The position numbers and the translations under genes were made by a program. From an uncultured Nitrospirota bacterium (lineage in GTDB: Bacteria > Nitrospirota > Nitrospiria > SBBL01 > JAADHI01), in the NCBI GenBank assembly GCA_964604255.1, contig CAZRYI010000001.1:1-30492 (forward strand): 30,492 nt of DNA, given 5' to 3'. Numbering within the stretch: position 1 is the stretch's first letter; the number at the start of each line of letters is the position of its first letter. Below the pieces are notes generated by a model. That model saw only the letters and a list, made by a program, of their open reading frames with translations. It did no database searches and had not been told where the DNA came from. Shown here in pieces: positions 3,458 through 30,352 of the stretch.

Positions 3458-4573
3458 ATGCCGAAGCGGATTTTGGAGGAATTCAAGGTCGAATGGTTTC
3501 AGCTTTTAGACGAGCAAGGCAGGCTTGACGCATCGCTTCTTTCCCACTTACTGGGCCCCACCGAAAAAATCACACCAAAAGAAATCCAGGCTTTTTACGA
3601 ATCAATGGTGCTGATTCGTGCTTTTGATAAAAAAGCCTTAAAACTTCAGCGAATGGGGCGACTTGGCACCTATCCCGCCATTGAAGGTCAGGAGGCAATA
3701 CAGGTCGGCTGTGCTGCCGCACTCAAGTCTTCAGACTGGTTTTTTCCGGCTTTTAGAGAAACGGGGATTTCTATTTTACGGGGCTTGCCGATGAAAACAC
3801 TCTACCAATATTGGTCGGGTGACGAACGCGGCAACGTCGTGCCTGAAACACAAAATGACTTTCCCGTTTCCATCCCCGTGGGCACACATATTCCTCATGC
3901 GGTGGGTGCAGCCTGGGCGGCAAAATACAAACAAGATAAAATTGCTGTGCTCACGACTTTTGGTGACGGTGCAACTTCCAAGGGCGATTTCCATGAAGGG
4001 CTCAACTTTGCGGGGGTTTTCAGCCTGCCTGTTGTCTTTCTCTGCCAAAACAATCAATGGGCCATTTCCGTTCCGGTCTCCCGTCAAACGGCATCAAAGA
4101 CCCTCGCCCAAAAAGCGATTGCCTATGGTTTTCCCGGCATTCAGGTGGACGGCAACGACGTCATTGCGGTCTATCTTGCGGTAAAAAGGGCGCTTGAATC
4201 TGCAAGACAAGGCAAAGGGCCAACCCTGATTGAATGTCTCACTTATCGGCTGAGCGATCATACGACCGCTGACGATGCTTCCCGGTATCGCTCAGAAGAA
4301 GAAGTGGCACAGTGGCGTTTAAAAGATCCGATGCGCCGTTTAAAAAGCTATTTGGAAAAGAACGACTTTTGGTCGGCAGAACAGGAAGAAGCACTTCAGC
4401 AGGGGGTAGAAGCGCGTATTTCAGCAGCCGTAGAGGACTACGAATCTGCAGGACCGATGGACCCTTTACAAATATTTGACTCACTTTTTGAGAGCCTTCC
4501 AAATGACTTGTTGCCTCAGAGAGCGGCACTTGCACGCCGTATCAAAAAAGAGAAAGAAGAGGCCCCACATTGA
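3458..4573 (+). CDS. pdhA: Pyruvate (2-oxoacid) dehydrogenase E1 alpha subunit
   Basis: GRLGTY...GQEA, TPP-binding GDGATSKGDFHEGLNFA...QNNQWAIS, YRLSDHTTADD; first gene of a three-gene E1a-E1b-E2 cluster. Substrate specificity (pyruvate vs branched-chain) is not provable from sequence. Confidence 0.88.
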   Translation: MPKRILEEFKVEWFQLLDEQGRLDASLLSHLLGPTEKITPKEIQAFYESMVLIRAFDKKALKLQRMGRLGTYPAIEGQEAIQVGCAAALKSSDWFFPAFRETGISILRGLPMKTLYQYWSGDERGNVVPETQNDFPVSIPVGTHIPHAVGAAWAAKYKQDKIAVLTTFGDGATSKGDFHEGLNFAGVFSLPVVFLCQNNQWAISVPVSRQTASKTLAQKAIAYGFPGIQVDGNDVIAVYLAVKRALESARQGKGPTLIECLTYRLSDHTTADDASRYRSEEEVAQWRLKDPMRRLKSYLEKNDFWSAEQEEALQQGVEARISAAVEDYESAGPMDPLQIFDSLFESLPNDLLPQRAALARRIKKEKEEAPH

Positions 4574-5547
4574 ACAAACTCACACTTGTTCAGGCAGTGA
4601 ATCAGGCCCTTTCTTATGAAATGGCCCTGAACGAAAACATGGTGATTCTGGGTGAAGATGTGGGCGCAGATGGCGGTGTTTTTCGTGCAACGGACGGTTT
4701 AATCGACACTTTTGGTGCATCACGGGTGGTGGATACCCCGCTTTCCGAATCGGCCATCATCGGCACGGCCATCGGTATGGCGGCTTATGGTTTGAGGCCG
4801 GTTGCCGAAATTCAGTTCATGGGTTTTCTTTACGGGGCAATGGAACAGTTGGTCTGTCATGCTGCAAGACTACGCAGCCGCACACGAGGCCGTTATACTT
4901 GTCCGCTCGTAGTGCGAGCGCCCTATGGCGGCGGCATCCACGCACCCGAACTGCATTCTGAAAGCACAGAAGCTTTTTTTGTCCATACGCCGGGTTTAAA
5001 GGTCGTGATGCCCTCAACACCGGCGGAAGCCAAGGGTTTATTACTGTCCGCACTGAGAGACCCTGATCCGGTTATTTTTCTGGAACCCTCAAAAATTTAT
5101 CGGGCCATTAAAGAAGAAGTGCCTGACGAAGCCCTGCTCATTCCCTTGGGGCAGGCAAGATTGGTCGCAGAGGGTGACAAGGCGACCCTGATTACCTGGG
5201 GGGCCATGCTGCATCCAACCCTGAAAGCAGCGGCGAGCATGATTGAGCAAGGGGTGCATTGCGACATCATTGATTTAAGAACGCTTTCGCCGCTGGACAG
5301 CGACACGATCATACAATCCATTGAAAAAACCGGACGTGCTGTCATTATTCATGAAGCGGCAAGGAGCTGCGGACTCGGAGCCGAGATTGCTGCTCAAATT
5401 TCAGAGAAAGCCTTGTTATCACTGAAAGCCCCGATTGTCCGTGTGACAGGCTTTGACACGGGCGTGCCCTTACCCAAACTGGAACACTATTATTTCCCGG
5501 ACGAAGCGCAAATCGTCGAAGCCATTCAAGAGGTTGTCCACTTTTAA
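4570..5547 (+). CDS. pdhB: Pyruvate (2-oxoacid) dehydrogenase E1 beta subunit
   Basis: GEDVG..GGVFRATDGL, DTPLSESAIIG, EIQF, GGGIHAPELHSES; TTG start overlaps the pdhA stop. Confidence 0.9.
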   Translation: MNKLTLVQAVNQALSYEMALNENMVILGEDVGADGGVFRATDGLIDTFGASRVVDTPLSESAIIGTAIGMAAYGLRPVAEIQFMGFLYGAMEQLVCHAARLRSRTRGRYTCPLVVRAPYGGGIHAPELHSESTEAFFVHTPGLKVVMPSTPAEAKGLLLSALRDPDPVIFLEPSKIYRAIKEEVPDEALLIPLGQARLVAEGDKATLITWGAMLHPTLKAAASMIEQGVHCDIIDLRTLSPLDSDTIIQSIEKTGRAVIIHEAARSCGLGAEIAAQISEKALLSLKAPIVRVTGFDTGVPLPKLEHYYFPDEAQIVEAIQEVVHF

Positions 5548-5549
5548 AT

Positions 5550-6845
5550 ATGGAAAAAGTCTTTACATTTCCAGATGTCGGCGAAGGCATCGCCGAAGGT
5601 GAGATTGTGGCCTGGCTTGTTCACAAAGGTGATTTCGTCAAAGAAGATCAGCCTGTTATTGAGGTTGAAACGGATAAAGCCCTTGTCAGTTTGCCCTCAC
5701 CCTATACCGGTCAGATTGTGTCTCTGAAGGGAGAGGTCGGTCAAATCATTGAAGTTGGTACCAAGCTGTTTACAGTGGAAACCACGCCAGAGACTTCTCA
5801 AAAAAATGAAGTGCAAAAAAAGAAAGACGGTGGATCGGTTGTCGGCATCTTGCAGGAATCGGAGGAAGAATTTGTGCTTCCGATACAGTCAAAAACAAAA
5901 CAAGTCCCCACCGCTTCAGTCTCCCCAGACCCTTTCTCGGAAAAACGTCCATCAGCGTTTCCTAACAAATCTTCCGCAAAAGTACGGGCCATTCCATCGG
6001 TTCGAGCCTATGCAAAATCGCTGGATATTGATCTAAACACCATTGAAGGCAGCGGCCCCGAGGGTCGTATTTTGCGGGTGGATGTGGAACGATCTCTTGC
6101 AAAAAAGGCCGATGCAGGCCCAAGCGATATCAGAATGCAGGGCCCGGTGGAGCGCATTCCTTTCAGGGGTGTGCGACGGAGCGGGGGCAAGCGGGTGGCG
6201 GAGTCTTCTGAAAAAGTGGCCGCGGTCACCTTTGTGGATGATGCGGATATCACAAAACTCGAAAAGGTGAGGCTCAATAAAAAAGATCTGGCGGAAGAGA
6301 AAGGCTTTAATCTGACCTACCTGCCTTTTATCATCAAGGCCCTGGTTTCCGGTTTAAAAACCTATCCTTTTTTGAATGCCATGCTGGACGAAACAAAGGA
6401 AGAAATCATCCTGAAAAAGTATTACAATGTCGGCATTGCTGTCGATACACCCAAAGGCCTGATGGTGCTAGTAATCAAAGAGGCCGACCAAAAGTCCATC
6501 CTGGACTTGGCTCAGGAAATCTCGGTGCTGACTGAAAAAGCCCTGTCTCGTAGTATCGTGCTTTCGGAATTAAAGGGCAGCACCTTTACACTGACCAACT
6601 ACGGTGTGATTGGCGGCATCTATGGCACACCCATTATCAACTACCCTGAAGTCGGTATTTTAGGATTGGGTAAAATTGCGGATCGGGCCGTCGTTCGCTC
6701 AGGAGAAATTGTCATCAGAAAAATCCTGCCGCTCTCACTCACCTTTGATCATCGAGTGATTTACGGCGCAGAGGCCGCCCGATTTATGAATACCGTCATT
6801 GAACATCTGGAAGATCCTGATTTAATGTTGATTGAAGGAAAGTAG
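5550..6845 (+). CDS. pdhC: Dihydrolipoamide acyltransferase E2 (one lipoyl domain)
   Basis: Lipoyl EVETDKA, E3-binding domain PSVRAYAKSLDIDL...GSGPEGRI, catalytic domain TPIINYPEVGILG and FDHRVIYG. Confidence 0.9.
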   Translation: MEKVFTFPDVGEGIAEGEIVAWLVHKGDFVKEDQPVIEVETDKALVSLPSPYTGQIVSLKGEVGQIIEVGTKLFTVETTPETSQKNEVQKKKDGGSVVGILQESEEEFVLPIQSKTKQVPTASVSPDPFSEKRPSAFPNKSSAKVRAIPSVRAYAKSLDIDLNTIEGSGPEGRILRVDVERSLAKKADAGPSDIRMQGPVERIPFRGVRRSGGKRVAESSEKVAAVTFVDDADITKLEKVRLNKKDLAEEKGFNLTYLPFIIKALVSGLKTYPFLNAMLDETKEEIILKKYYNVGIAVDTPKGLMVLVIKEADQKSILDLAQEISVLTEKALSRSIVLSELKGSTFTLTNYGVIGGIYGTPIINYPEVGILGLGKIADRAVVRSGEIVIRKILPLSLTFDHRVIYGAEAARFMNTVIEHLEDPDLMLIEGK

Positions 6846-19436: not shown

Positions 19437-21959
19437 ATGGGAAAGAGACCCTTGGTGTTCTTTACCCTTGCCCTGCTCGGTGGCCTCTTTTTCAGCGAAG
19501 CGTTTCTCTACTTCCCGCTTGCACTCAGCCTTTCTGTTTTGATCCTTCTTTTTGTCGAAGGGGTCTTTTTTCGTGGACGCCTTCTATCATTTCCCCTCTT
19601 CCTTGTGGGACTGCTTGCTTTTCTGATCCATCAGATCAGTGCGGTGCCTTTTTCCGACCGAGACCTACAACATTATATTGACGGACACACGATCCGAATC
19701 GTTGCTCAGGTTTCCGGTCCTCTACGTCACGATCCAAGACGTGTGCGCCTCCAGATGAAGGCACAGACCATTTACATTGCAGACAAAACACTGCCGCTTC
19801 GGGGCGATTTCCATCTCAATATCTGGGAAAAGGAAATTCCTTTTGAATATGGGGATTCCCTGGAAATGCAGATCAAACTACGTCGTCCCGGACAGTTTCA
19901 AAACGAAGGGGCTTTTCAATATGCGGATTACCGAGAACGCACAGGCTGGAGCGGTGTGGCCAACCTTTCAAATCTGGATCGGATTAAAAAGGTGGGCGAG
20001 GGTGGCAACCCGGTTTTGAAGCACATTTTTCGCTGGCGAGATGAAATTCGAAAACGCATTCTGAGTGCATTTGCCCCTCCAAGTGGCGCATTGCTCATGG
20101 CCCTGGTTATTGGAGAAACGGGCTATCTGCCAGATGAAGTTCGGGAGCATTTTGCCGCTTCGGGCACGGCTCATCTGCTGGCGGTTTCCGGTGCCCATCT
20201 TGCCTTCGTTTCTTTGTTTGTTTTTGGTTTCGTCCGATATCTGCTCTTGAAACTGCCTGAAGCCCTCTTGTTACGGCTCACACTCTGGAAAATGCCCTCA
20301 CAATGGGCGGCCTTATTCACTGCCGGAGCAGCCATTTTTTACACTTTTTTTGCGGGTGCAAAAATCGGAACCCTGCGCGCATTGAGCATGATATTGATCT
20401 ACCTGCTTTCAATCTGGCTCGGCAGAAATCGGGATGCGATGACGGCTTTGGCCCTTGCGGCCCTCTTCATTATTCTTTTTGAAATAAGGGCGGTTTTTGA
20501 AATCTCCTTTCAGCTCTCTTTTTTATCTGTCCTCTTTATTCTTCTGATGATGTCATGGCAACAAAAACAAGACGATCTCGATAGTGATGATGGGCTCGAA
20601 GATGGGCCTTCTTTTTATCAAAAATTCGTTGCAGGCCCGGCCTCCCTGATGATGACCTCAACAATCGGGGCGATTATCGGTACTGCGCCGCTCGTCCTTT
20701 ATTATTTCCACCAATTTTCCTGGGTCGCGCTCTTCAGCAACCTGATTGTATTACCGCTTGTGGGTTGGTTAGTGGTTCCCATCGGCCTGCTCATTTCTCT
20801 GGGGGCTTTACTTTTTTCTAAAGGTTTCCCCTTTGCCGATGTGCTTGAAGCAGGTTTGTCTTACTTTTACGCATTGGTTTCATTTTTTGCCGAGCTGCCG
20901 GGGGCCAATTTTCACTTTGCTGCGCCTCCCTTATGGCTGATCATTCTTTATTACATCGTCTTTTCAGCGATTTTTATTCTCAAAAAACCGCGATCTTGGC
21001 TCTTGTTTTCTCTGCTGAGTTTCGGACTTCTTTTTTTTGGCTGGGGAGGCATTCGCATCGCACCCGCGCATCTCCGCGTGACTTTTTTAGATGTTGCACA
21101 AGGAGATGCGACCTTGATTGAGTTTGCAAATGGCAAAACCCTGCTGATTGACGGTGGCACAAAAACGGCTGGAAAGTTTGGTGTTGCGCCCTATCTTTGG
21201 CAGCACCGAATCAGGACGATTGATATGTTACTTGCGACCCATCCGCAGTTTGATCACATGGGCGGACTGCCCTATCTCATTCGAGCATTCAATGTGGGTA
21301 CAGTTTGGAGCAATGGCCGGGAAAATAAGGCAGCACATTATCGGGATTTCCAAAAGGCGCTGAAATCAAAAGGACTTGAGCCGCGTATCATCAACAATCA
21401 GAGTCCGCCCTTGATGATTGACAATTGCAGGCTTTCATTTTTAAATCCAGGTATAAAAGACGGGCTTGTGCCACGGAAGTCCAATAACGACTCCATTGTG
21501 CTGCATCTCTCCTGCCTCACTCCGGGAGAAAAAATGCTGTCCTTTCTTTTTACGGGAGACATTGAAGCTGAGGCCGAAACCGTACTGCTCGAAAGTGCTG
21601 CCGACTTGAAGAGCCATATTCTGAAAGTCCCCCACCATGGCAGCCGAAGCTCCTCCGGTGAAAGCTTCATCTCTGCTATTTCTCCGAATTTTGCGATTAT
21701 TTCAGCCGGTCGGAAAAATCGTTATCACCACCCTCACAAGGAGGTGCTGGCAGTTTATGCATCACAGGGGATTAAAATTTATCGAAGCGACCAGGAAGGA
21801 GCGATTACCTTTGTTATCAAGCCGGATCAGGAAGACTCAGTGTTGCCCCTGCAAGTTTCATCCTACCGTGATAGCAAAATAAAAAGGATTCTCTGGTCGG
21901 ATGAGGTGGCGACGCAGGAGTGGGAAAACATCAAGGCTTTTTTTCGGCCCTTAAGTTGA
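19437..21959 (+). CDS. comEC: DNA internalization competence protein ComEC/Rec2
   Basis: OB-like N-domain, Competence domain (SGTAHLLAVSGAH), beta-lactamase-like domain (FLDVAQGDA, THPQFDH, FTGDIE, KVPHHGS, NRYHHPH). Confidence 0.93.
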   Translation: MGKRPLVFFTLALLGGLFFSEAFLYFPLALSLSVLILLFVEGVFFRGRLLSFPLFLVGLLAFLIHQISAVPFSDRDLQHYIDGHTIRIVAQVSGPLRHDPRRVRLQMKAQTIYIADKTLPLRGDFHLNIWEKEIPFEYGDSLEMQIKLRRPGQFQNEGAFQYADYRERTGWSGVANLSNLDRIKKVGEGGNPVLKHIFRWRDEIRKRILSAFAPPSGALLMALVIGETGYLPDEVREHFAASGTAHLLAVSGAHLAFVSLFVFGFVRYLLLKLPEALLLRLTLWKMPSQWAALFTAGAAIFYTFFAGAKIGTLRALSMILIYLLSIWLGRNRDAMTALALAALFIILFEIRAVFEISFQLSFLSVLFILLMMSWQQKQDDLDSDDGLEDGPSFYQKFVAGPASLMMTSTIGAIIGTAPLVLYYFHQFSWVALFSNLIVLPLVGWLVVPIGLLISLGALLFSKGFPFADVLEAGLSYFYALVSFFAELPGANFHFAAPPLWLIILYYIVFSAIFILKKPRSWLLFSLLSFGLLFFGWGGIRIAPAHLRVTFLDVAQGDATLIEFANGKTLLIDGGTKTAGKFGVAPYLWQHRIRTIDMLLATHPQFDHMGGLPYLIRAFNVGTVWSNGRENKAAHYRDFQKALKSKGLEPRIINNQSPPLMIDNCRLSFLNPGIKDGLVPRKSNNDSIVLHLSCLTPGEKMLSFLFTGDIEAEAETVLLESAADLKSHILKVPHHGSRSSSGESFISAISPNFAIISAGRKNRYHHPHKEVLAVYASQGIKIYRSDQEGAITFVIKPDQEDSVLPLQVSSYRDSKIKRILWSDEVATQEWENIKAFFRPLS

Positions 21960-22772
21960 CGGAGTGAGATTGAGGTCTCGTGCGATTTCCTGGATCATTT
22001 TTTCGTCGATGAGTTCTTTTTTGATGAGGAAACCTTCAAACAGGGCATTGTCACAAAGGGTGTTGATGAGGCGTGGAATGCCTTCTGAATATTGATGAAT
22101 TGCCGCAAGTGCCTTCCCTGAAAAAAGAGGTTTTTGCGCTCCTGCGATCTCCAGTCGGCACTTGATATATTCATGGGTCACCGCTTCGGGAAAGGAGCGG
22201 AGCGGATAACGAATCGCAACGCGTTGCTGAAGCGGTTTGTCGAGCGCCATGGCTTCATCCAATTCAGAAAGGCCGAAAAAAATGAAGGTGATCAGTTTTT
22301 GGCTGTCGTATTCAATATTCAGGATGCCCCTGAATTCCTCCATGATTTCTTTATTGTGCAGCATCTGCGCTTCATCTACCAAAACAACCGCTTTTTTCCC
22401 CGACTCATGAATCGTGATTAGGCGTTTGTAGAGCTGGCTTAACAAATCTGCTTTGATTTCGGAAGGTGCTTCAACGCCGAGTTGCACGGCAATTTTCCTT
22501 AAAAGCCATTCAGAGCTGATAGAGGTATGGATGACGACCAGCAGCGCCGATTCGTATTGGTCCTCGTCAAGTTCATCTAACATTCTTCGGGCGAGCGTGG
22601 TTTTTCCGGTGCCGACATTACCGACAATAACGGCCAAACCCTTACGATGTTCCACGGCATATTTTAATCGCAGCAGGGCTTCGGAATGTTGCTGACTGTT
22701 AAAATAGAAACGATTGTCCACCGAGATCGAAAAGGGCTGTTCTCTCAACTGATAAAATTTAAGATGATCCAT
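21951..22772 (-). CDS. ExeA/GspA-family AAA ATPase
   Basis: FYQLREQPFS, Walker A GNVGTGKTT, Walker B VLVDEAQ, GIPRLINTLCDNAL; GGAGG SD. No peptidoglycan-binding C-terminal domain. Confidence 0.85.
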   Translation of the reverse strand: MDHLKFYQLREQPFSISVDNRFYFNSQQHSEALLRLKYAVEHRKGLAVIVGNVGTGKTTLARRMLDELDEDQYESALLVVIHTSISSEWLLRKIAVQLGVEAPSEIKADLLSQLYKRLITIHESGKKAVVLVDEAQMLHNKEIMEEFRGILNIEYDSQKLITFIFFGLSELDEAMALDKPLQQRVAIRYPLRSFPEAVTHEYIKCRLEIAGAQKPLFSGKALAAIHQYSEGIPRLINTLCDNALFEGFLIKKELIDEKMIQEIARDLNLTPST

Positions 22773-22784
22773 TCATCCTCCAAG

Positions 22785-25040
22785 TTAGAGGTAGGAAACC
22801 CGGTCTTTTTTCTTTTGGGGTTTGTCTTCTGTGTCCACAAAATATTCATCTGAGGCAGGAGGCGGCGCAGCAAGGCTCTCTTCATGTGCCTGTTCCCTTT
22901 TTTGGGCGACCTCCCGATAATTCGGGTCAATCTCAAAGATTGCGTCGTATAAAAAGGCGGCCTTTTCGGTTGCGCCTTGCGCTTCCTGTAGAAGGGCTAA
23001 CTCATATTTCAGGGCGATGGTCACGCTTTGATCAGATGTGTTTCTGTTTAAGCCCTGTTCAAGGGCGGTAATGGCCTGATCAATTGATCCGCGTTCACGA
23101 TGGCAGATTGTCAGCATGGTCAGTGCATCTTTAAAGCGAGATGCACCCTGAGAGGCATTTTCAAAGGCTTTGATCGCTTCAGAAAGCATGCCCATTTCTC
23201 GATAGGCGATGCCAAGATCGTATTCGGTTTCAAGTGCCTCCGGCTGAAGATCTTCCTGATGTTTGTCTTGCACTGAGCGGATTGCCCGCTCAAGGCTCGT
23301 TTGGTCTTCTTCCTCCGCTTCTTCAGGTTCCAGCTCGTCGGAAAAATAAGCTTGCAGATCAATGTAGTCTTCGTTTACTTCCTCTGCCGCTTTCTCCAGG
23401 TCTTCGCCACCTGAAGGGGGCTTTGGTATTTCAAGCGCTTCCAGGTTTATTTCGGCGGTTTCGATATCGGATGAAACGGGTGCACCAAGCGTGGGTTCAT
23501 CAAAATCAATGGCATAGGCTTCGTCTGCAAAATATGTTTCATTGGGTTCTTCGGACTCAGAATCGTCGAGATCAAAAAAGGGGTCATCCGATCGGGGCTT
23601 TGGCAGATTTCCTGGTTCTGTCGATGAACGCAGGGGGTCTTGCTCCAGCTCCGGGAGATCAACCTCGGCGATATCGTCAGAGGGAAGATAATCCAAATCG
23701 GGTGCTGGCGTTTGAGTCATTTCATTGTTGTCTGTGTCCTCACCGGAGGTATTGAGACTGTCTTCAAATGATTGTTCGTCGCCAAACAAACCTTTGGGGA
23801 ATGGATCTTTTGCAAGCATCTCCTCCTCTACGGCGTCATCAGAGGGGATTTCTGGCGAGGAGGCAAATTGTGCTGAGTCTTGCATTGCCCTCAAGGCTGC
23901 AAGCATCGCCTGCGATTTTTCTGCATCGCCAGCGCTTTGATAAAGCGCTGACAGACTCTGCAAGGTCTCAATCTGTTGTCTGGTGTCGCCCTGTTGCTCG
24001 TAGAGCTCTTTCAGCTTTAACAGTGGAGCAGGTTCTCTGGGAAATTGTACTGCGGCGCCTTGCAATTGCTCAATCGCCTTATCAAAAAGCTCATGTTGAA
24101 TGTAGACTTCGGCTTCTGTCAGTCGGGCTTCCAGGGTCTTGTCATCGCATTCAGCTTGTACATCGTCAAGGTGAAATGAGCCTTCTACGGCGTAAATCGT
24201 CTGTTCATCTGTCATTAACTCCGATTCGGGTTCAAAGAATTCCGATGAGGTCTGTTCAGATTGGGCTTCGTCAAAAGGTTCCGGTTCTTGGAAATTTTCC
24301 GCTTCCGGGAAATCTGAATGGATGTCGTCATTTGTACTACCTGGGATTTCTTCTTTCAGAGATTCGGTCGGCAGAGATTCAGGTGAAAATGCTTCGACAG
24401 GTGCTTCAGGGACTGCTGGCTGATTTTTATTTTGCGCGGCGTAAGAGGGGTCGAGTGCAATTATTTTTTGAAGGATTGCTTCTGCTTCGGAAGGCCGATT
24501 GTTTTCTTCAAAAAAGGATCTTAGTTTTTTATACTCTTCAATTGCATTTTCATTATGCCCTTCCTTCTGGCACATTTCAGCAACTTCCAGCAGGATGTCA
24601 ACATTTTCCGGATCGAGATCTGAAATTTTTCTGTAGACGGATAGGGAGGCTTCGAAGTTTCCCTGATTTAAGTAGGCTTTTGCTGCTTGCAGGTAATCAC
24701 CAATTGCATTGCCAATCAATCCACGATCAGCATAAACACCCGCGAGCTTTTCGCTGATTTCTATCCGTGTCGGATCAACCTTCAAGGCTTTTTTAAAAAC
24801 GGCAATGCTTTTGAGTTCAAAACCCTCTGATTGAAAGGCTTCGGCAGCTTTTATAAAAAAATCAGTGGCTTGTTCTTGTTGTCCATCTTTTAGGTGGAGG
24901 TCTCCTATGGCATTGTAGATATTCCCGTCGTCGGGCAGCGTGGCAATCAGCTTTTTCCACTCCCCGATTGCCTGTTTAAACTGCCCTTTTGACGCGAATT
25001 TCTGGGCTTTTTCTATGATCTTACTCTTGCTTAAAGACAA
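22785..25040 (-). CDS. Cytoplasmic TPR protein with acidic linkers (FimV C-terminal / SgmX-like)
   Basis: N-terminal TPR array, central LTEAEVYIQHELFDKA repeat, long D/E-rich spacers, C-terminal ETEYDLGIAYREMGM TPRs. TTG 25040 follows the SD AAGGGGGGA; the track start is 25076. Confidence 0.75.
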   Translation of the reverse strand: MSLSKSKIIEKAQKFASKGQFKQAIGEWKKLIATLPDDGNIYNAIGDLHLKDGQQEQATDFFIKAAEAFQSEGFELKSIAVFKKALKVDPTRIEISEKLAGVYADRGLIGNAIGDYLQAAKAYLNQGNFEASLSVYRKISDLDPENVDILLEVAEMCQKEGHNENAIEEYKKLRSFFEENNRPSEAEAILQKIIALDPSYAAQNKNQPAVPEAPVEAFSPESLPTESLKEEIPGSTNDDIHSDFPEAENFQEPEPFDEAQSEQTSSEFFEPESELMTDEQTIYAVEGSFHLDDVQAECDDKTLEARLTEAEVYIQHELFDKAIEQLQGAAVQFPREPAPLLKLKELYEQQGDTRQQIETLQSLSALYQSAGDAEKSQAMLAALRAMQDSAQFASSPEIPSDDAVEEEMLAKDPFPKGLFGDEQSFEDSLNTSGEDTDNNEMTQTPAPDLDYLPSDDIAEVDLPELEQDPLRSSTEPGNLPKPRSDDPFFDLDDSESEEPNETYFADEAYAIDFDEPTLGAPVSSDIETAEINLEALEIPKPPSGGEDLEKAAEEVNEDYIDLQAYFSDELEPEEAEEEDQTSLERAIRSVQDKHQEDLQPEALETEYDLGIAYREMGMLSEAIKAFENASQGASRFKDALTMLTICHRERGSIDQAITALEQGLNRNTSDQSVTIALKYELALLQEAQGATEKAAFLYDAIFEIDPNYREVAQKREQAHEESLAAPPPASDEYFVDTEDKPQKKKDRVSYL

Positions 25041-25066
25041 AGGAATCCCCCCTTTTGCTCTTAAAA

Positions 25067-25095
25067 TTGATATCACAGGATCCAGAATGTGTCAA
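25067..25095 (-). promoter_or_regulatory. Sigma70 promoter candidate for the TPR-ExeA genes
   Basis: TTGACA (25095-25090), 17 nt, TATCAA (25072-25067) with TGn extension. It places the transcript start downstream of GTG 25076, which supports the TTG 25040 start. Confidence 0.5.
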
Positions 25096-25170: not shown

Positions 25171-25716
25171 CTATTGATGTGGCTTATGAACCGCCGATTC
25201 GATTGCGCTCTTCCCTTCCCGCAACTCCGGGGGAATAAAATCGAGGCCTAAGATTGAAAAAAGTTCTTTTTCTTCCTGACAGGGTAACAAGTGGTCGTCT
25301 AAAAAAAGGCCGTAAGCACTGATTTTTATGCCGTATTGTTCTGCTCGCCTGGAAAGCGCTTCTAAAAAGTAATCGCTCCCCGTCACTTGCAAAAGAAGCA
25401 GGGCAAAATGGTTATCAGAGGTGATGTTTAAGCGAAGCGGAATCCCCTCAGCTAACACATAGTTGTAGAGATTGCTTTGTTCAGATATCGATGTTTCTTC
25501 TGGGGGGAAATCCTGGTTTAAGTTCGCAATGTTTGGAAAAATGCTGATCAGTGTCTTGGGCGAATCACTACTGACAAGGAGATCAATGCTGCTGACAGAT
25601 TCCTTCCCTCGTCTCAGGCCTCCGGCAAAACTTGCTCGCTTGACCTCTTTTCTACGAAGCAGTTTTTCGAGAATCTCTTCTCCGATAGTCCTAATGCGAT
25701 TAGAACGACGGGACAT
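25171..25716 (-). CDS. Stand-alone DNA polymerase X palm-thumb fragment with substituted catalytic aspartates
   Basis: AGGLRRGKESVSSIDLLV, VTGS, AYGLF, EEKELFSILGLDFIPPELREG match bacterial PolX palm and thumb motifs. No lyase, fingers or PHP domain; GGAGGT SD upstream. Confidence 0.75.
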   Translation of the reverse strand: MSRRSNRIRTIGEEILEKLLRRKEVKRASFAGGLRRGKESVSSIDLLVSSDSPKTLISIFPNIANLNQDFPPEETSISEQSNLYNYVLAEGIPLRLNITSDNHFALLLLQVTGSDYFLEALSRRAEQYGIKISAYGLFLDDHLLPCQEEKELFSILGLDFIPPELREGKSAIESAVHKPHQ

Positions 25717-25974: not shown

Positions 25975-26694
25975 CTAATAATCCTTCTCTGATACCGAGG
26001 CGAATGCAGATTGCCGGTCGATCTGCCCCGCATCGGCAAAACTAAAATAACTGTCACTCCCGATAATAACATGGTCTAAAACCGGTATGCCCAGCAGATG
26101 ACCGACGTCCACCAGTCGCTTGGTGATTGCCTGATCTTCCCGACTGGGCGAAGGGTCGCCACTGGGATGATTGTGTAAAAAAATAACCGATGCCGCGGAT
26201 TCCCGAAGCGCCGGACTGAAAACCTCTCTCGGGTGCACGATGGTTGATGTCAAACTGCCTTCTGAGATAGTGACATCCCGAATCACTTTGTTCTTTTGGT
26301 CGAGCAGAATGAGAACGAAAAATTCTTTTTTCGCACCCCTCAAACGTGGGGAAAAATATCCAAAGACCTGCTGGCTTTTGTTCATCTTCAGACCCTCCGA
26401 AAGCGGCAAGGATAAAAACCTTCGTCCCAATTCAAATGAGGCTTTCAGCTGGGCCGCTTTTGCTGGCCCGATGCCTCGGACAGAACAAAGCTCTGTGGTA
26501 CTGACATCGACCAAGCGAGAAAGTGGGTGAAATTTCTTCAAAAGATGCATCGCCAATTGCAGGGCATTTTCCTGGTCACTTCCGGTTCTGAGCAAAATGG
26601 CCAAAAGTTGTGCATCGGAAAGTGCCGCTGGCCCCTCTTTCAGCAAGCGTTCCCGCGGTCGCTCGGCTGTCGGCCAATCTTGGATATTTGACAT
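25975..26694 (-). CDS. radC: RadC / UPF0758 JAB-domain protein (full-length chromosomal type)
   Basis: ERPRERLL..GPAALSDAQLLAILLRTG, HhH GIGPAKA, VHPREVF, HNHPSGDPSPSRED, LDHVIIG. Confidence 0.93.
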   Translation of the reverse strand: MSNIQDWPTAERPRERLLKEGPAALSDAQLLAILLRTGSDQENALQLAMHLLKKFHPLSRLVDVSTTELCSVRGIGPAKAAQLKASFELGRRFLSLPLSEGLKMNKSQQVFGYFSPRLRGAKKEFFVLILLDQKNKVIRDVTISEGSLTSTIVHPREVFSPALRESAASVIFLHNHPSGDPSPSREDQAITKRLVDVGHLLGIPVLDHVIIGSDSYFSFADAGQIDRQSAFASVSEKDY

Positions 26695-26872: not shown

Positions 26873-26914
26873 TTGTTAGAGAAATGTCATCAACGAATAA
26901 GGAGGAGACTAACA

Positions 26915-27088
26915 ATGGAATGTCCTAAATGTAGTGGATTAATGTATATGGAACGGCTGACAGATTTTTTTGTGATTTTCAATGTTTGGAAGTGTATTAA
27001 CTGCGGTGCGCTCATGGACAAGACCATCATTGAGAACCATCAGAAAAGTCTCGACGCTTTAGAGGCAGTTGGCAGTGCCTCAGGCTAG
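26915..27088 (+). CDS. Small zinc-ribbon-like protein (57 aa, two CxxC motifs)
   Basis: MECPKCSGLM...WKCINCGALMD; SD AAGGAGG before ATG 26915. The track start TTG 26873 has no SD and directly abuts the -12 element. Confidence 0.75.
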   Translation: MECPKCSGLMYMERLTDFFVIFNVWKCINCGALMDKTIIENHQKSLDALEAVGSASG

Positions 27089-27699: not shown

Positions 27700-27707
27700 C
27701 GGGGGTG

Positions 27708-27736
27708 ATTATAAGAAAGATGCGATTTAAAGTCAA
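27708..27736 (-). promoter_or_regulatory. Near-consensus sigma70 promoter, probably yielding a leaderless mRNA
   Basis: TTGACT (27736-27731), 17 nt, TATAAT (27713-27708), then 8 nt to ATG 27699; no SD. Confidence 0.75.
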
Positions 27737-27855
27737 AATGCAGCGCTTGTCACTTGGTCCCGAGTTTATCCTGCCGCTGATATTTCCAAAATGACCCTCA
27801 GCACAATAAATCAATTCATTAACAATGCAACACCCCCTTGTTCAGTAGAACCAGC

Positions 27856-29484
27856 TCATAATCCTTTGTGGTTCGCATACATCACAAATAATGTTCTCAC
27901 GAGGGCGATATATATTTTTGAACGTTCATCTTGTGAGAGGCCAGAAAAGCCACCCAGATTATGCGCTGAAAAGTTTCTTATAAGGTACGTGATGAGGAGA
28001 TGTTTTCCACAGCGCCTATCTTCTGGAATTTCTTTTGATTCCAATAGGCATTTTAGGTTTTGAATAAATTCGCCCATATTGTTTGGTTCAAGGCTTATCT
28101 TCCCTTTTTTTTGTCTTAATTTTTGATAGTCTTTTGCGCCAAATAATTCCTTAAAAATTCCCTCTAATTTCCTTTTTTTTCTGATCCAGTCCTTTCCATG
28201 ACCCTCAATGGAAATGGCAAGATCTGTGTAGCCGCTCCACATGTCATTTTCGCGCCACAATTCTTGCCCCCAATAGACCTTATTGATTTTACGAATTGCC
28301 GCAAGTGCAGTGCACTGAGGTGATTCACTTAGTTCATCGAAGAGCTGAAGGTAGAGAGATTCGGGTAGTCTCTCTTCTTCAATTAAATTGGCATTCAGTT
28401 CTTTTAAGTTCTCCTCAAGCATCCATTTGAAGTTTTTTTCAAGATCTCTTGTTTCGTCCAGGAAGAGTGTTTCTAAAGCTCCTTGGTAAATATCAACACC
28501 GTCCTCAGAACCACGACTAAGACTATTTTTGAATGGGCCAGCAACATCATCACAAATCTTCTGAAATGCATGGCCTGTCGCAAACCTCAAAAACCCAACT
28601 GTTCTTGCGATATAGGTCTCCGCTTCCAGGCTCAAAAGAATTTTTTCTAATTTTTTGCTTTTTTCATAAATTTCAATCAATTTTCTAAGAAAGCGAATCC
28701 AATTTTTGTAAGGAAAGGCTTGTAAATAATGCTCTGCGACAAGGGCCAGTTTTTTATCTGCACAATCCCAATCTTCTTTGCTATTTGCCTTTCTATCCAG
28801 ATATAGCCGATATAGATTTCTTCGATACGAAAAAAATCCGACTTTTTCAAAAAAAGGAATGAACTCGACCAATCTGGACTCAACGATACTACTATCAAAA
28901 ACTCCCCATCCTTTTTTGACTCCGGTTGCGCGATTGTGAGTATCAGTATTCTGCTGATCCAGCTCATGAAGAAAGAACACTTGCCAAGGGGCATAATAGT
29001 GCTCAGCCCTACTTTCTTTGCCTCTACTTGAGTCATCAATTATGACTTTATATCTTTTCCAAACCCTAAACCGTTGTTTTTGAGGGTTTAAAACAAAAGG
29101 CTGTAGATCATCCGAAAAATGTTGTTCTAAAGGATGTCCGTTTTCTAAGCATTCACTAAATGACTTGTCCATCCAATTTGAACAGTTGTGTATCGAATTT
29201 TCTAGAGATAACAGAGGTTGCCATTTGTCTAAAATTTTGTACTTCCGCTTGTTCGCAATGTAAACCGCCCGGTATCTTCTTCTCAGCAGTTCCCGAGGGT
29301 ACAGCAAGCGAATACAAGGGAAGAGTAACTTTCTTTTTTCATAAGTTTCCAATGCATACTCATTGACGTCCACTTTATTCGCTTTACAATACTTTATAAA
29401 TTCAGTGTGTTGGACATACGGGGTGTCATTTCTTGATCGGGCATGTGTTGGAATGTTTATAGAGATGTTCGCACTGTCGCTCAT
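27856..29484 (-). CDS. AT-rich hypothetical protein with C-terminal HEPN-like RNxxxH motif (candidate RNase)
   Basis: 542-aa open frame; YLIRNFSAHN at residues 500-509 in a predicted helical C-terminus; lower G+C than the neighbouring genes. The CDS is well supported; the function is inferred. Confidence 0.6.
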   Translation of the reverse strand: MSDSANISINIPTHARSRNDTPYVQHTEFIKYCKANKVDVNEYALETYEKRKLLFPCIRLLYPRELLRRRYRAVYIANKRKYKILDKWQPLLSLENSIHNCSNWMDKSFSECLENGHPLEQHFSDDLQPFVLNPQKQRFRVWKRYKVIIDDSSRGKESRAEHYYAPWQVFFLHELDQQNTDTHNRATGVKKGWGVFDSSIVESRLVEFIPFFEKVGFFSYRRNLYRLYLDRKANSKEDWDCADKKLALVAEHYLQAFPYKNWIRFLRKLIEIYEKSKKLEKILLSLEAETYIARTVGFLRFATGHAFQKICDDVAGPFKNSLSRGSEDGVDIYQGALETLFLDETRDLEKNFKWMLEENLKELNANLIEEERLPESLYLQLFDELSESPQCTALAAIRKINKVYWGQELWRENDMWSGYTDLAISIEGHGKDWIRKKRKLEGIFKELFGAKDYQKLRQKKGKISLEPNNMGEFIQNLKCLLESKEIPEDRRCGKHLLITYLIRNFSAHNLGGFSGLSQDERSKIYIALVRTLFVMYANHKGL

Positions 29485-29491
29485 AAGTTTT

Positions 29492-29530
29492 ATTCTAGGG
29501 TTTTTCTTGTTTTCTCAGTTATCCGAGAAA
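29492..29530 (-). promoter_or_regulatory. -10 element and overlapping palindrome upstream of the 542-aa gene
   Basis: TAGAAT (29497-29492) lies 7 nt before ATG 29484. Palindrome TTTCTCAG-TTAT-CCGAGAAA (29511-29530, one mismatch) covers the -35 position. Confidence 0.45.
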
Positions 29531-29560
29531 CAAAAAAGGGCGAACACAATGGCTCACCCT
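29528..29560 (-). terminator. Intrinsic terminator downstream of hisF
   Basis: Minus strand AGGGTGAGC-cattgt-GTTCGCCCT (two G-U pairs) followed by TTTTTGTTT. Confidence 0.75.
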
Positions 29561-29587
29561 CTTGAAAATATCCTGAAGACTACGCCA

Positions 29588-30352
29588 TCAAAGCCGAACT
29601 GGGACCCCTCGTTTTGCAAGATATACTTTTGCTTCATGGATGGAATAGGTTTGGTAGTGGAATATTGATGCGGCCAGTACTGCATCGGCTAAGCCGATGG
29701 TCACACCTTCATAGAGGTGTTCGAGTGTGCCGACACCACCGGAGGCGATGACGGGGATGTGGATCCGTTCGCAGACAGCGCGGGTGAGTTCGAGATCGTA
29801 ACCTGTGGTTTGCCCGTCCTGATCCATGCTGGTGAGCAGGATTTCTCCGGCACCGTAGGCTGCCATTTTTGCGGCCCATTCAATTGCATCAAGTCCGGTC
29901 GCATTACGTCCGCCGTGGGTATAGACTTCCCAGTGATTGTTTTTATCTTTAGAGCGTTTGGCATCAATCGCAACAACGATGGTGGAACTGCCGAATTGCC
30001 GTGAGGCTTCTCGCACAAATTCAGGACGCGTGATGGCAGCGGTATTGATTGCGACCTTGTCCGCCCCAGCGCTCAAGAGCATTTGCACATCCTCTACCTT
30101 GCGCACGCCGCCGCCGACGGTCACAGGCATCGAGACTTCATCCGCCGTGTGACGCACGATGTCGAGCAATATTTCTCGTTCATCAGAAGAGGCGGTGATA
30201 TCCAGAAAACAGAGTTCATCAGCCCCTTGCGCTTCATAGTTTTTTGCCACTTCGACGGGATCACCCGCATCTTTCAAATTGACAAAACTTACGCCTTTTA
30301 CGACGCGCCCCCCTTTCACATCTAAACAGGGGATGATACGTTTTGCGAGCAT
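29588..30352 (-). CDS. hisF: Imidazole glycerol phosphate synthase cyclase subunit
   Basis: [47 protein letters not shown]. Start set to ATG 30352; the track's 28-aa extension overlaps hisA. Confidence 0.97.

Follow-up and report, generated by a model that had tools for sequence, protein, structure and literature searches.

A rare family of MerR-like and HEPN-like proteins, represented downstream of hisF in an uncultured Nitrospirota bacterium, as candidate single-gene immune effectors

The gene at positions 27856-29484 (minus strand) of contig CAZRYI010000001.1, which is the subject of this report, has its closest described counterpart in ApeA, a single-gene HEPN antiphage system that Gao et al. 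are said to have reported in 2020. ApeA lays out N-terminal, Mid and split-HEPN domains along one polypeptide and provides single-gene HEPN defence; its HEPN dimers build doughnut-shaped oligomers, tRNA anticodon loops are cleaved, the activators are 5'-phosphorylated deoxydinucleotides, and the nearest solved relative is HepT (bioRxiv 10.64898/2026.01.26.701840). Its N-terminal region has been described as a beta-rich domain, ApeA-NTD1 (PMC3710099), and alternatively as a catenin-like helical domain accompanied by a PafA-like Mid domain (bioRxiv 10.64898/2026.01.26.701840). In some lineages ApeA is embedded in restriction-modification operons (PMC3710099). A second line of work is a comparative genomic study from 2026, which lists, among the genes embedded in BREX operons, nucleases of the HEPN and TOPRIM/OLD classes that stand alone and are called 'backup suicidal effectors'; a MerR-like N-terminal domain and ApeA are both absent from its main text (PMC12839542). 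A HEPN gene is also found within the Hma defence operon, where protection by its product, HEC-08, depends on the motif histidine.

Here we report the computational analysis of positions 1 to 30,492 of this contig (assembly GCA_964604255.1, an uncultured Nitrospirota bacterium), hereafter the window, and of the 542-aa protein, P0001, that this gene encodes. P0001 belongs to a rare, unannotated family that combines a MerR-like DNA-binding fold with a HEPN ribonuclease-like domain. Since members of this rare family often lie inside restriction or BREX operons, it is a good candidate for a new single-gene immune effector. On the evidence below, P0001 is probably a mobile, stand-alone sensor-plus-HEPN ribonuclease effector of immunity or abortive infection, analogous to ApeA and representing a new family with a new N-terminal module.

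Conservation and predicted structure

An initial annotation, made from the sequence of this stretch alone, had called a 542-aa gene, and the call stands; the gene has an ATG start, and homologues share the start position. A word-indexed search returned 35 relatives, nearly all full-length; wherever a source is named, the protein is labelled hypothetical and derives from a Nitrospirota or 'Deltaproteobacteria' metagenome-assembled genome (MAG). An exhaustive HMMER search of metagenomic proteins yielded 113 cluster representatives, mostly of 520-560 aa. One homologue with 58% identity lies on a 2.6 kb contig (L013, QIJL01000646.1) whose bin is Flavobacteriales; the MAGs behind all its fellow close relatives are Nitrospirota or Desulfobacterota-like, and this copy represents either a mis-binned contig or a cross-phylum transfer.

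Near its C-terminus P0001 carries a motif of the form R-N-x3-H, R503-N504-F-S-A-H508, for which the position given in the initial annotation (27978-27961) is exact. G493, H495, R503, N504 and H508 are among the residues that never vary in 32 close homologues. Across 57 full-length homologues (16-57% identity) the only invariant columns are P56, R503 and H508, which leaves R503 and H508 as the sole invariants of the C-terminal two thirds of the protein. The conservation of these two residues had been proposed as a check, and it is borne out down to about 17% identity, with N504 retained in at least 90% of the sequences. The spacing R503-x4-H508 falls within the R-x4-6-H pattern of the HEPN superfamily.

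The alignment-based AlphaFold (AF2) model of P0001 (mean predicted local distance difference test, pLDDT, 83; predicted template modelling score, pTM, 0.64) has three parts: an alpha/beta N-terminal domain (about residues 1-200), a middle region made of helices (about residues 205-380) and, at the C-terminus, a helical bundle. The bundle has four helices in up-down arrangement and bears the motif on the penultimate core helix, as in the HEPN superfamily. The motif helix (residues 494-507) is followed by a single last helix (518-539); of the final amphipathic helix that had been read from the sequence, the model thus bears out the one last helix. Foldseek comparison with the clusters of the AlphaFold Protein Structure Database (AFDB) retrieved a full-length uncharacterised relative (Q8TLC7, E 8e-18) and two clusters that bear the name 'Apea-like HEPN domain-containing protein' (E values of 2.4e-7 and 8.2e-6, both with probability 1.00), the second of which, A0A2S8B2R8, aligns with residues 213-541 (template modelling score by hit 0.61). 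Over about residues 345-542, at least 12 of the 23 VIA-align rows are HEPN proteins. The best structural matches include the HEPN toxins HepT, SO_3166, RnlA and LsoA, as well as the HepT-type structure 5YEP; the HEPN domains of sacsin and of kanamycin nucleotidyltransferase are also among the matches.

The N-terminal domain, folded alone, gave a pLDDT of 87 and a pTM of 0.81, and the top entries in its list of structural matches are exclusively MerR-type winged helix-turn-helix (wHTH) domains. Besides the invariant P56, at least 90% of the sequences of the family retain F29, C33, L45, E46, E49, R59, P63, P134, W142, Y164 and W167. The two structural guesses of the initial annotation, a MerR-type winged helix at the N-terminus and a HEPN fold at the C-terminus, therefore hold, because the model of the N-terminal domain supports the former and the matches to Apea-like AFDB clusters and to HEPN proteins in VIA-align support the latter.

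Comparison with ApeA, HEPN toxins and MerR regulators

P0001 and ApeA are both single, mostly helical polypeptides of about 450-590 aa, with an N-terminal part, a middle part and a C-terminal HEPN domain with insertions. The R-N-x3-H form of the motif is the same in P0001 and in genuine members of the ApeA family PF18739 (HEPN_Apea). The C-terminal 330 residues of P0001 match the Apea-like AFDB clusters, the helical middle and the HEPN core together resembling the Apea-like HEPN region, and in both cases the closest solved relatives are of the HepT type, e.g. 5YEP. The two proteins differ at the N-terminus, where P0001 has a MerR-type wHTH with an alpha/beta elaboration whereas the genuine ApeA members that we retrieved have N-termini of beta-strand appearance. 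They also differ at the level of sequence profiles: PF18739 does detect genuine members in the phylum of P0001, with no match to P0001 at E <= 10 and none to the 57 family members at E <= 0.01. The ligand pocket, the doughnut-shaped oligomers and tRNA cleavage are features of ApeA; the family described here is known from sequences and models.

With the HEPN toxins (HepT/SO_3166-MNT, RnlA, LsoA, the C-terminal HEPN domain of AbiA, HEC-08) P0001 has in common the HEPN fold and an R-x4-6-H motif on the penultimate core helix. It differs from them in its much larger size, in having its own N-terminal wHTH module and in its lack of an MNT, RnlB or other antitoxin partner. We rejected the identification of P0001 as a HEPN-MNT type II toxin-antitoxin system because an MNT gene and a conserved small partner are both absent from the loci compared. 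HEC-08 belongs to a different family, built of DUF3644 and zinc fingers, an architecture that P0001 lacks.

The resemblance to MerR regulators is confined to the winged-HTH fold of about residues 20-75. The family consensus L-E-x-Y-E-K-x-G-L-L-x-P is close to the signature of the MerR HTH, L-R-x-Y-E-x-x-G-L-L-x-P, and we treat this as a lead only; at the position of the signature arginine the family has a nearly invariant glutamate, E46. The Pfam MerR models match neither P0001 nor any of the 57 family members. The C-terminal 340 residues form the helical middle and the HEPN-like domain. A genuine MerR regulator was rejected as an identity, since a match to the hidden Markov models, a C-terminal coiled-coil dimerisation helix and an effector-binding domain are all missing. 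A literature search found no description of an architecture joining a MerR-like wHTH to a HEPN domain.

Genomic context, effector exchange and distribution

The surroundings of the family were compared at 14 HEPN-type loci with usable flanks, the window included; for four further members (P0065, P0057, P0040 and P0037) the contigs were too short to give informative context. At 6 of the 14 loci the homologue directly follows a DNA methyltransferase gene, in some cases with overlapping stop and start codons. Three of these copies (G030, L028 and L031) lie inside type 3 BREX operons in the order BrxC-PglXI-[gene]-SNF2 helicase-PglZ; G030 is a case of such overlapping codons, and in L028 and L031 the operon is on a conjugative element with Tra genes. 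Another homologue follows an Eco57I/MmeI-type methyltransferase beside a PLD-SNF2 helicase and a PDC-M30A-like gene, another is placed between a Type ISP enzyme (Type_ISP_C, E 3e-90), which it follows, and an IS200-like transposase, and a divergent member (motif LRNYFAHH) comes after an N6-methyltransferase and ResIII pair. The methyltransferase-linked copies occupy at least three separate positions in the family tree, and because they are scattered in this way the linkage is recurrent and not the legacy of a single event. The BREX operons that carry homologues hold further embedded genes (L031:5586-7013, L031:11673-12044 and L028:6594-7217), which encode an SLFN/AlbA_2-HATPase_c_4 protein, a DUF433 protein and an unannotated 207-aa open reading frame (ORF); several independent insertions of cargo appear to have landed within one operon.

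Close linkage to methyltransferases is also what would be expected if the protein were a non-nuclease accessory of restriction-modification or BREX-type systems, its wHTH binding DNA to control or target the methyltransferase and its HEPN-like domain binding a ligand or nucleotide. The MerR-type DNA-binding fold and the presence of the sacsin and kanamycin nucleotidyltransferase domains among the structural matches agree with such a role. We nevertheless consider it unlikely. The sole invariants of the C-terminal part are the R and H of the catalytic motif, a pattern expected of an active ribonuclease over a binding module; many members, the window copy among them, are solitary, with neither a methyltransferase nor a BREX partner; and the Pfam MerR models do not match. 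The pairing of the same N-terminal domain with a TOPRIM nuclease, described next, fits a sensor joined to a nuclease better.

Two proteins, of 601 aa (G805, L046:4023-5828) and 610 aa (G006, L045:8226-10058), have only the N-terminal domain in common with the family. In place of the HEPN domain the former ends in an OLD-like TOPRIM domain (PF20469, 25.8 bits against a cutoff of 23.2), and the latter shows a weaker OLD-like TOPRIM match together with a GajA-like match. The G805 gene is flanked by a KAP NTPase and HSDR_N, that of G006 by PIN and DUF559. Both fusions are unannotated candidate defence proteins, and they document an exchange of effector domains behind a common N-terminal module. 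We offer tentatively the wider idea that this module of about 180 residues (MerR-like wHTH plus alpha/beta) is an unrecognised infection-sensing domain that has been swapped between HEPN ribonuclease and OLD-type TOPRIM effectors, thereby defining a new single-protein immune family whose members lodge preferentially right behind the methyltransferase gene in BREX type 3, Type ISP and type III-like systems. Proteins with this module may fire once the first-line system has been bypassed or inhibited, for example by sensing a feature of phage DNA or an anti-restriction factor.

The auxiliary or backup effectors of BREX operons and of operons related to BREX (PMC12839542) offer a direct comparison. 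Their two nuclease classes, HEPN and TOPRIM/OLD, are the same as the two partners of the N-terminal domain, and a subfamily of the present family sits between PglXI and the SNF2 helicase in three independent type 3 BREX loci. The effectors of that study are BREX-embedded, whereas the window copy has no BREX linkage; residence in type 3 BREX operons is a property of the distant subfamily of G030, L028 and L031, not of the window gene.

At three other loci the neighbours are defence-like: MazF, PIN and a 1529-aa protein with a weak STAND/AAA-like NTPase match at one, a Gp49/HigB-like toxin at another, and a weak HSDR_N remnant with DUF2971 at the third. The defence association of homologues, which the initial annotation had proposed as a check, is borne out by their neighbourhoods, which repeatedly show BREX, restriction-modification and toxin-antitoxin contexts. 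Toxin-antitoxin genes beside several homologues, HepT, SO_3166, RnlA and LsoA among the best structural matches, the conjugative elements that carry two of the three BREX-embedded copies, and a toxin-antitoxin-like cassette at the equivalent hisF-downstream site of genome G003 could together be read as signs of an addiction toxin, one that stabilises a selfish element and retains a DNA segment rather than fighting phage, its antitoxin being intramolecular or unrecognised. This appears decidedly unlikely to us: there is no conserved small partner and no MNT beside any of the 14 homologues, a protein of 540 aa whose N-terminal domain is large and conserved does not resemble the minimal HEPN toxins, and a tblastn search found no plasmid or phage copies.

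The distribution of the gene is patchy. The window derives from a MAG of 450 contigs, 88% complete, with a single copy. Of 61 relatives, 3 have the protein, and three genomes of the same genus, 95-99% complete, yielded no copy, so that the gene is not lineage-wide, a result that answers the question of vertical inheritance raised by the initial annotation. By profile search, 2 of 401 genomes sampled from its own phylum carry it, as do 4 of 401 from the phylum of a Thermodesulfobacteriota carrier, and the well-supported clade around the window copy mixes Nitrospirota, Thermodesulfobacteriota and 'delta proteobacterium' MAGs.

The composition is equally distinctive. The gene has 38.8% G+C, and 36.8% at third codon positions (GC3), against 41-52% G+C and 44-54% GC3 in its neighbours and a window mean of 47.8%; the spot counts given earlier (16/60 and 19/60 in this gene, 34/60 in leuS) were identical on recounting. 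In all 16 loci examined the homologue has 34-42% G+C, lies between flanks of 41-59% and falls below them, by up to 22 points, even in GC-rich BREX operons; the family holds steady at about 38% whatever the host. The gene is patchy in distribution and compositionally foreign, and it is probably accessory and horizontally mobile.

It might still be asked whether P0001 has an ordinary function in housekeeping or RNA processing, specific to the lineage, its low G+C and patchy occurrence being incidental. Its closest homologue, L004 (66% identity), holds the same position after hisF, and at 5 of the 14 loci housekeeping genes are the only neighbours. Such a role is very improbable: the gene was not found in the three nearly complete genomes of the same genus, about 1% or fewer of the sampled genomes carry it in each of two phyla, its clade crosses phylum boundaries, its G+C does not follow that of the host, and it diverges faster than hisF.

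Several results weigh against an ApeA-analogous immune effector. Scans of P0001 with Pfam, NCBIfam and PADLOC (the last of which presumably holds an ApeA model) gave no match, nor did a scan with PHROGs, and no relevant Pfam model matched the 57 family members; the initial annotation had likewise been unable to place the protein in a named family. The whole model and the N-terminal domain found nothing in the PDB by Foldseek at E <= 0.001. An hhalign comparison of the family profile with a profile of five divergent genuine HEPN_Apea sequences, which is a weak test, gave a probability of 0.2%. At the level of sequence, then, no link from the family to any named HEPN family was found. We regard the family as presumably ApeA-like in its working; with PF18739 and hhalign silent it is not a demonstrable member, and its N-terminal module differs. 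As to context, no defence genes lie alongside the window copy, PglZ was not found in its 88%-complete MAG, and the loci with housekeeping neighbours alone are the window itself, L004, L006, L017 and L030. Sequenced plasmid and phage collections held nothing similar to the gene by tblastn, and a search of the window for flanking direct repeats, insertion scars or a second copy of the hisF 3' end came up empty. Two further searches were uninformative: a profile search of PDB sequences returned noise, and ESM Atlas feature and shape searches gave no usable lead.

On balance we favour the sensor-plus-HEPN effector. The initial annotation had suggested a horizontally acquired protein of this kind, perhaps a single-gene abortive-infection system, and this is supported as far as computation reaches: the motif residues are conserved, the predicted fold is HEPN, and the gene is neither vertically inherited across the lineage nor, in its homologues, devoid of defence association. 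The ribonuclease activity, dimerisation, trigger and abortive outcome that we ascribe to P0001 are drawn by analogy with ApeA and other HEPN effectors. In the uninfected cell the protein would be held inactive. A cue of phage or mobile-element invasion, either a nucleic acid or a small ligand, may then be sensed through the N-terminal or middle domains, upon which the HEPN domains of two subunits would form a composite active site and cut RNA of the cell or of the invader, perhaps in the anticodon loops of tRNA; translation would halt and the infection would abort. In relatives whose gene is placed right after the methyltransferase of a BREX type 3, Type ISP, Eco57I-like or type III-like system, the protein might act as a second-line ('backup') effector, and in its own genome it would work alone from a variable site downstream of hisF.

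If active, the family would constitute a new compact group of single-gene HEPN effectors invisible to Pfam, NCBIfam, PADLOC and PHROGs, and it would permit a comparison of activation logic with ApeA. A sensor module joined to two types of nuclease and nested in BREX and restriction-modification operons is also a tractable setting in which to study how far 'backup' abortive effectors are coupled to methylation-based defences or work independently of them.

The site downstream of hisF and other features of the window

The coordinates of the gene, its domains and its immediate flanks are collected in Table 1.

Table 1. Features of the P0001 gene and its flanks (window coordinates)
Feature	Position	Strand	Basis
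Complete coding sequence (542 aa + stop) of the MerR-like wHTH / helical / HEPN protein P0001	27856..29484	-	ORF list; full-length homologues with the same start; AF2 model
N-terminal domain, residues 1-200	28885..29484	-	most widely conserved part of the family
MerR-type winged HTH core, about residues 20-75, then alpha/beta elaboration	29260-29427	-	structural matches
Helical middle, about residues 205-380	28345..28872	-	model helices 206-366
C-terminal HEPN-like helical bundle, about residues 381-542	27859..28344	-	AF2 model; structure matches
R503-N504-F-S-A-H508, candidate HEPN catalytic motif R-N-x3-H, penultimate helix	27961..27978	-	codon positions; invariance in 32 + 57 homologues
Intrinsic-terminator-like hairpin of hisF, 12-pair stem (5 G-C pairs), then T-run	29534..29563	-	sequence
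Downstream intergenic region, including the promoter-like site of the lipoprotein gene	27700..27855	.	blastn against L004 aligns window 27875-30352 only

The upstream neighbour is hisF (PF00977, E 2e-85), and the downstream neighbour is a 201-aa ORF with an N-terminal lipobox, L-V-S-C, and its own promoter-like site (27736-27708, minus strand). Both flanks had been read correctly at the outset, the hairpin at 29563-29534 (minus strand) on one side and the lipobox ORF on the other. The hairpin separates hisF from the P0001 gene and marks the upstream edge of a variable site.

The contents of the site after hisF differ across five related genomes. In L004 the homologue is followed by pyruvate dehydrogenase (PDH) E1 and E2 genes, which the window has on the opposite strand, at a distance of about 21 kb. 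Identity between window and L004 is 90% for the HisF protein and 66% for P0001, and 78% and 72%, respectively, for the corresponding DNA. By blastn the homology to L004 stops at the 3' end of the P0001 gene, and the downstream intergenic region is therefore a rearrangement or insertion boundary. The genes for PDH E1 alpha, E1 beta and E2 occupy 3458-6845 in the window and L004:9776-13123 in the relative; their displacement reflects either a rearrangement whose breakpoint coincides with the 3' end of the P0001 gene or, conceivably, a join made in the MAG assembly.

In G003, of the same genus (L034, G003:C27), an 81-aa ORF and a DUF2283 ORF (E 6e-17) at 849-1439 lie between hisF (1494-2258) and the PDH E1 alpha gene. 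This pair looks like a toxin-antitoxin cassette, and it is followed by a duplicated 3' fragment of hisF (79% identity over 87 nt), an arrangement that suggests integration at the hisF 3' end. The contigs of G001 and G002 break off some 320 bp past hisF, with unrelated sequence, and in G001 an rsmD-like and a coaD-like ORF precede the lipoprotein gene. Because the contents differ among L004, G003, G001 and G002, we regard the position downstream of hisF as a variable cargo site and, within this lineage of Nitrospirota, as a small hotspot for cargo.

Further along the window, a 71-aa ORF with two CxxC pairs (26873-27088, plus strand), zinc-ribbon-like and without a family match, lies between radC and the lipoprotein gene. 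The RadC-like JAB gene (25975-26694) adjoins a 181-aa ORF (25171-25716, minus strand) whose sole match is the thumb domain of DNA polymerase beta/X (PF14791, E 1e-16) and which could be a truncated or stand-alone PolX fragment. At 21951-25076 (minus strand), a 273-aa AAA_22 ATPase, which has only weak generic P-loop matches in PADLOC, is followed at tight spacing by a 763-aa multi-TPR protein.

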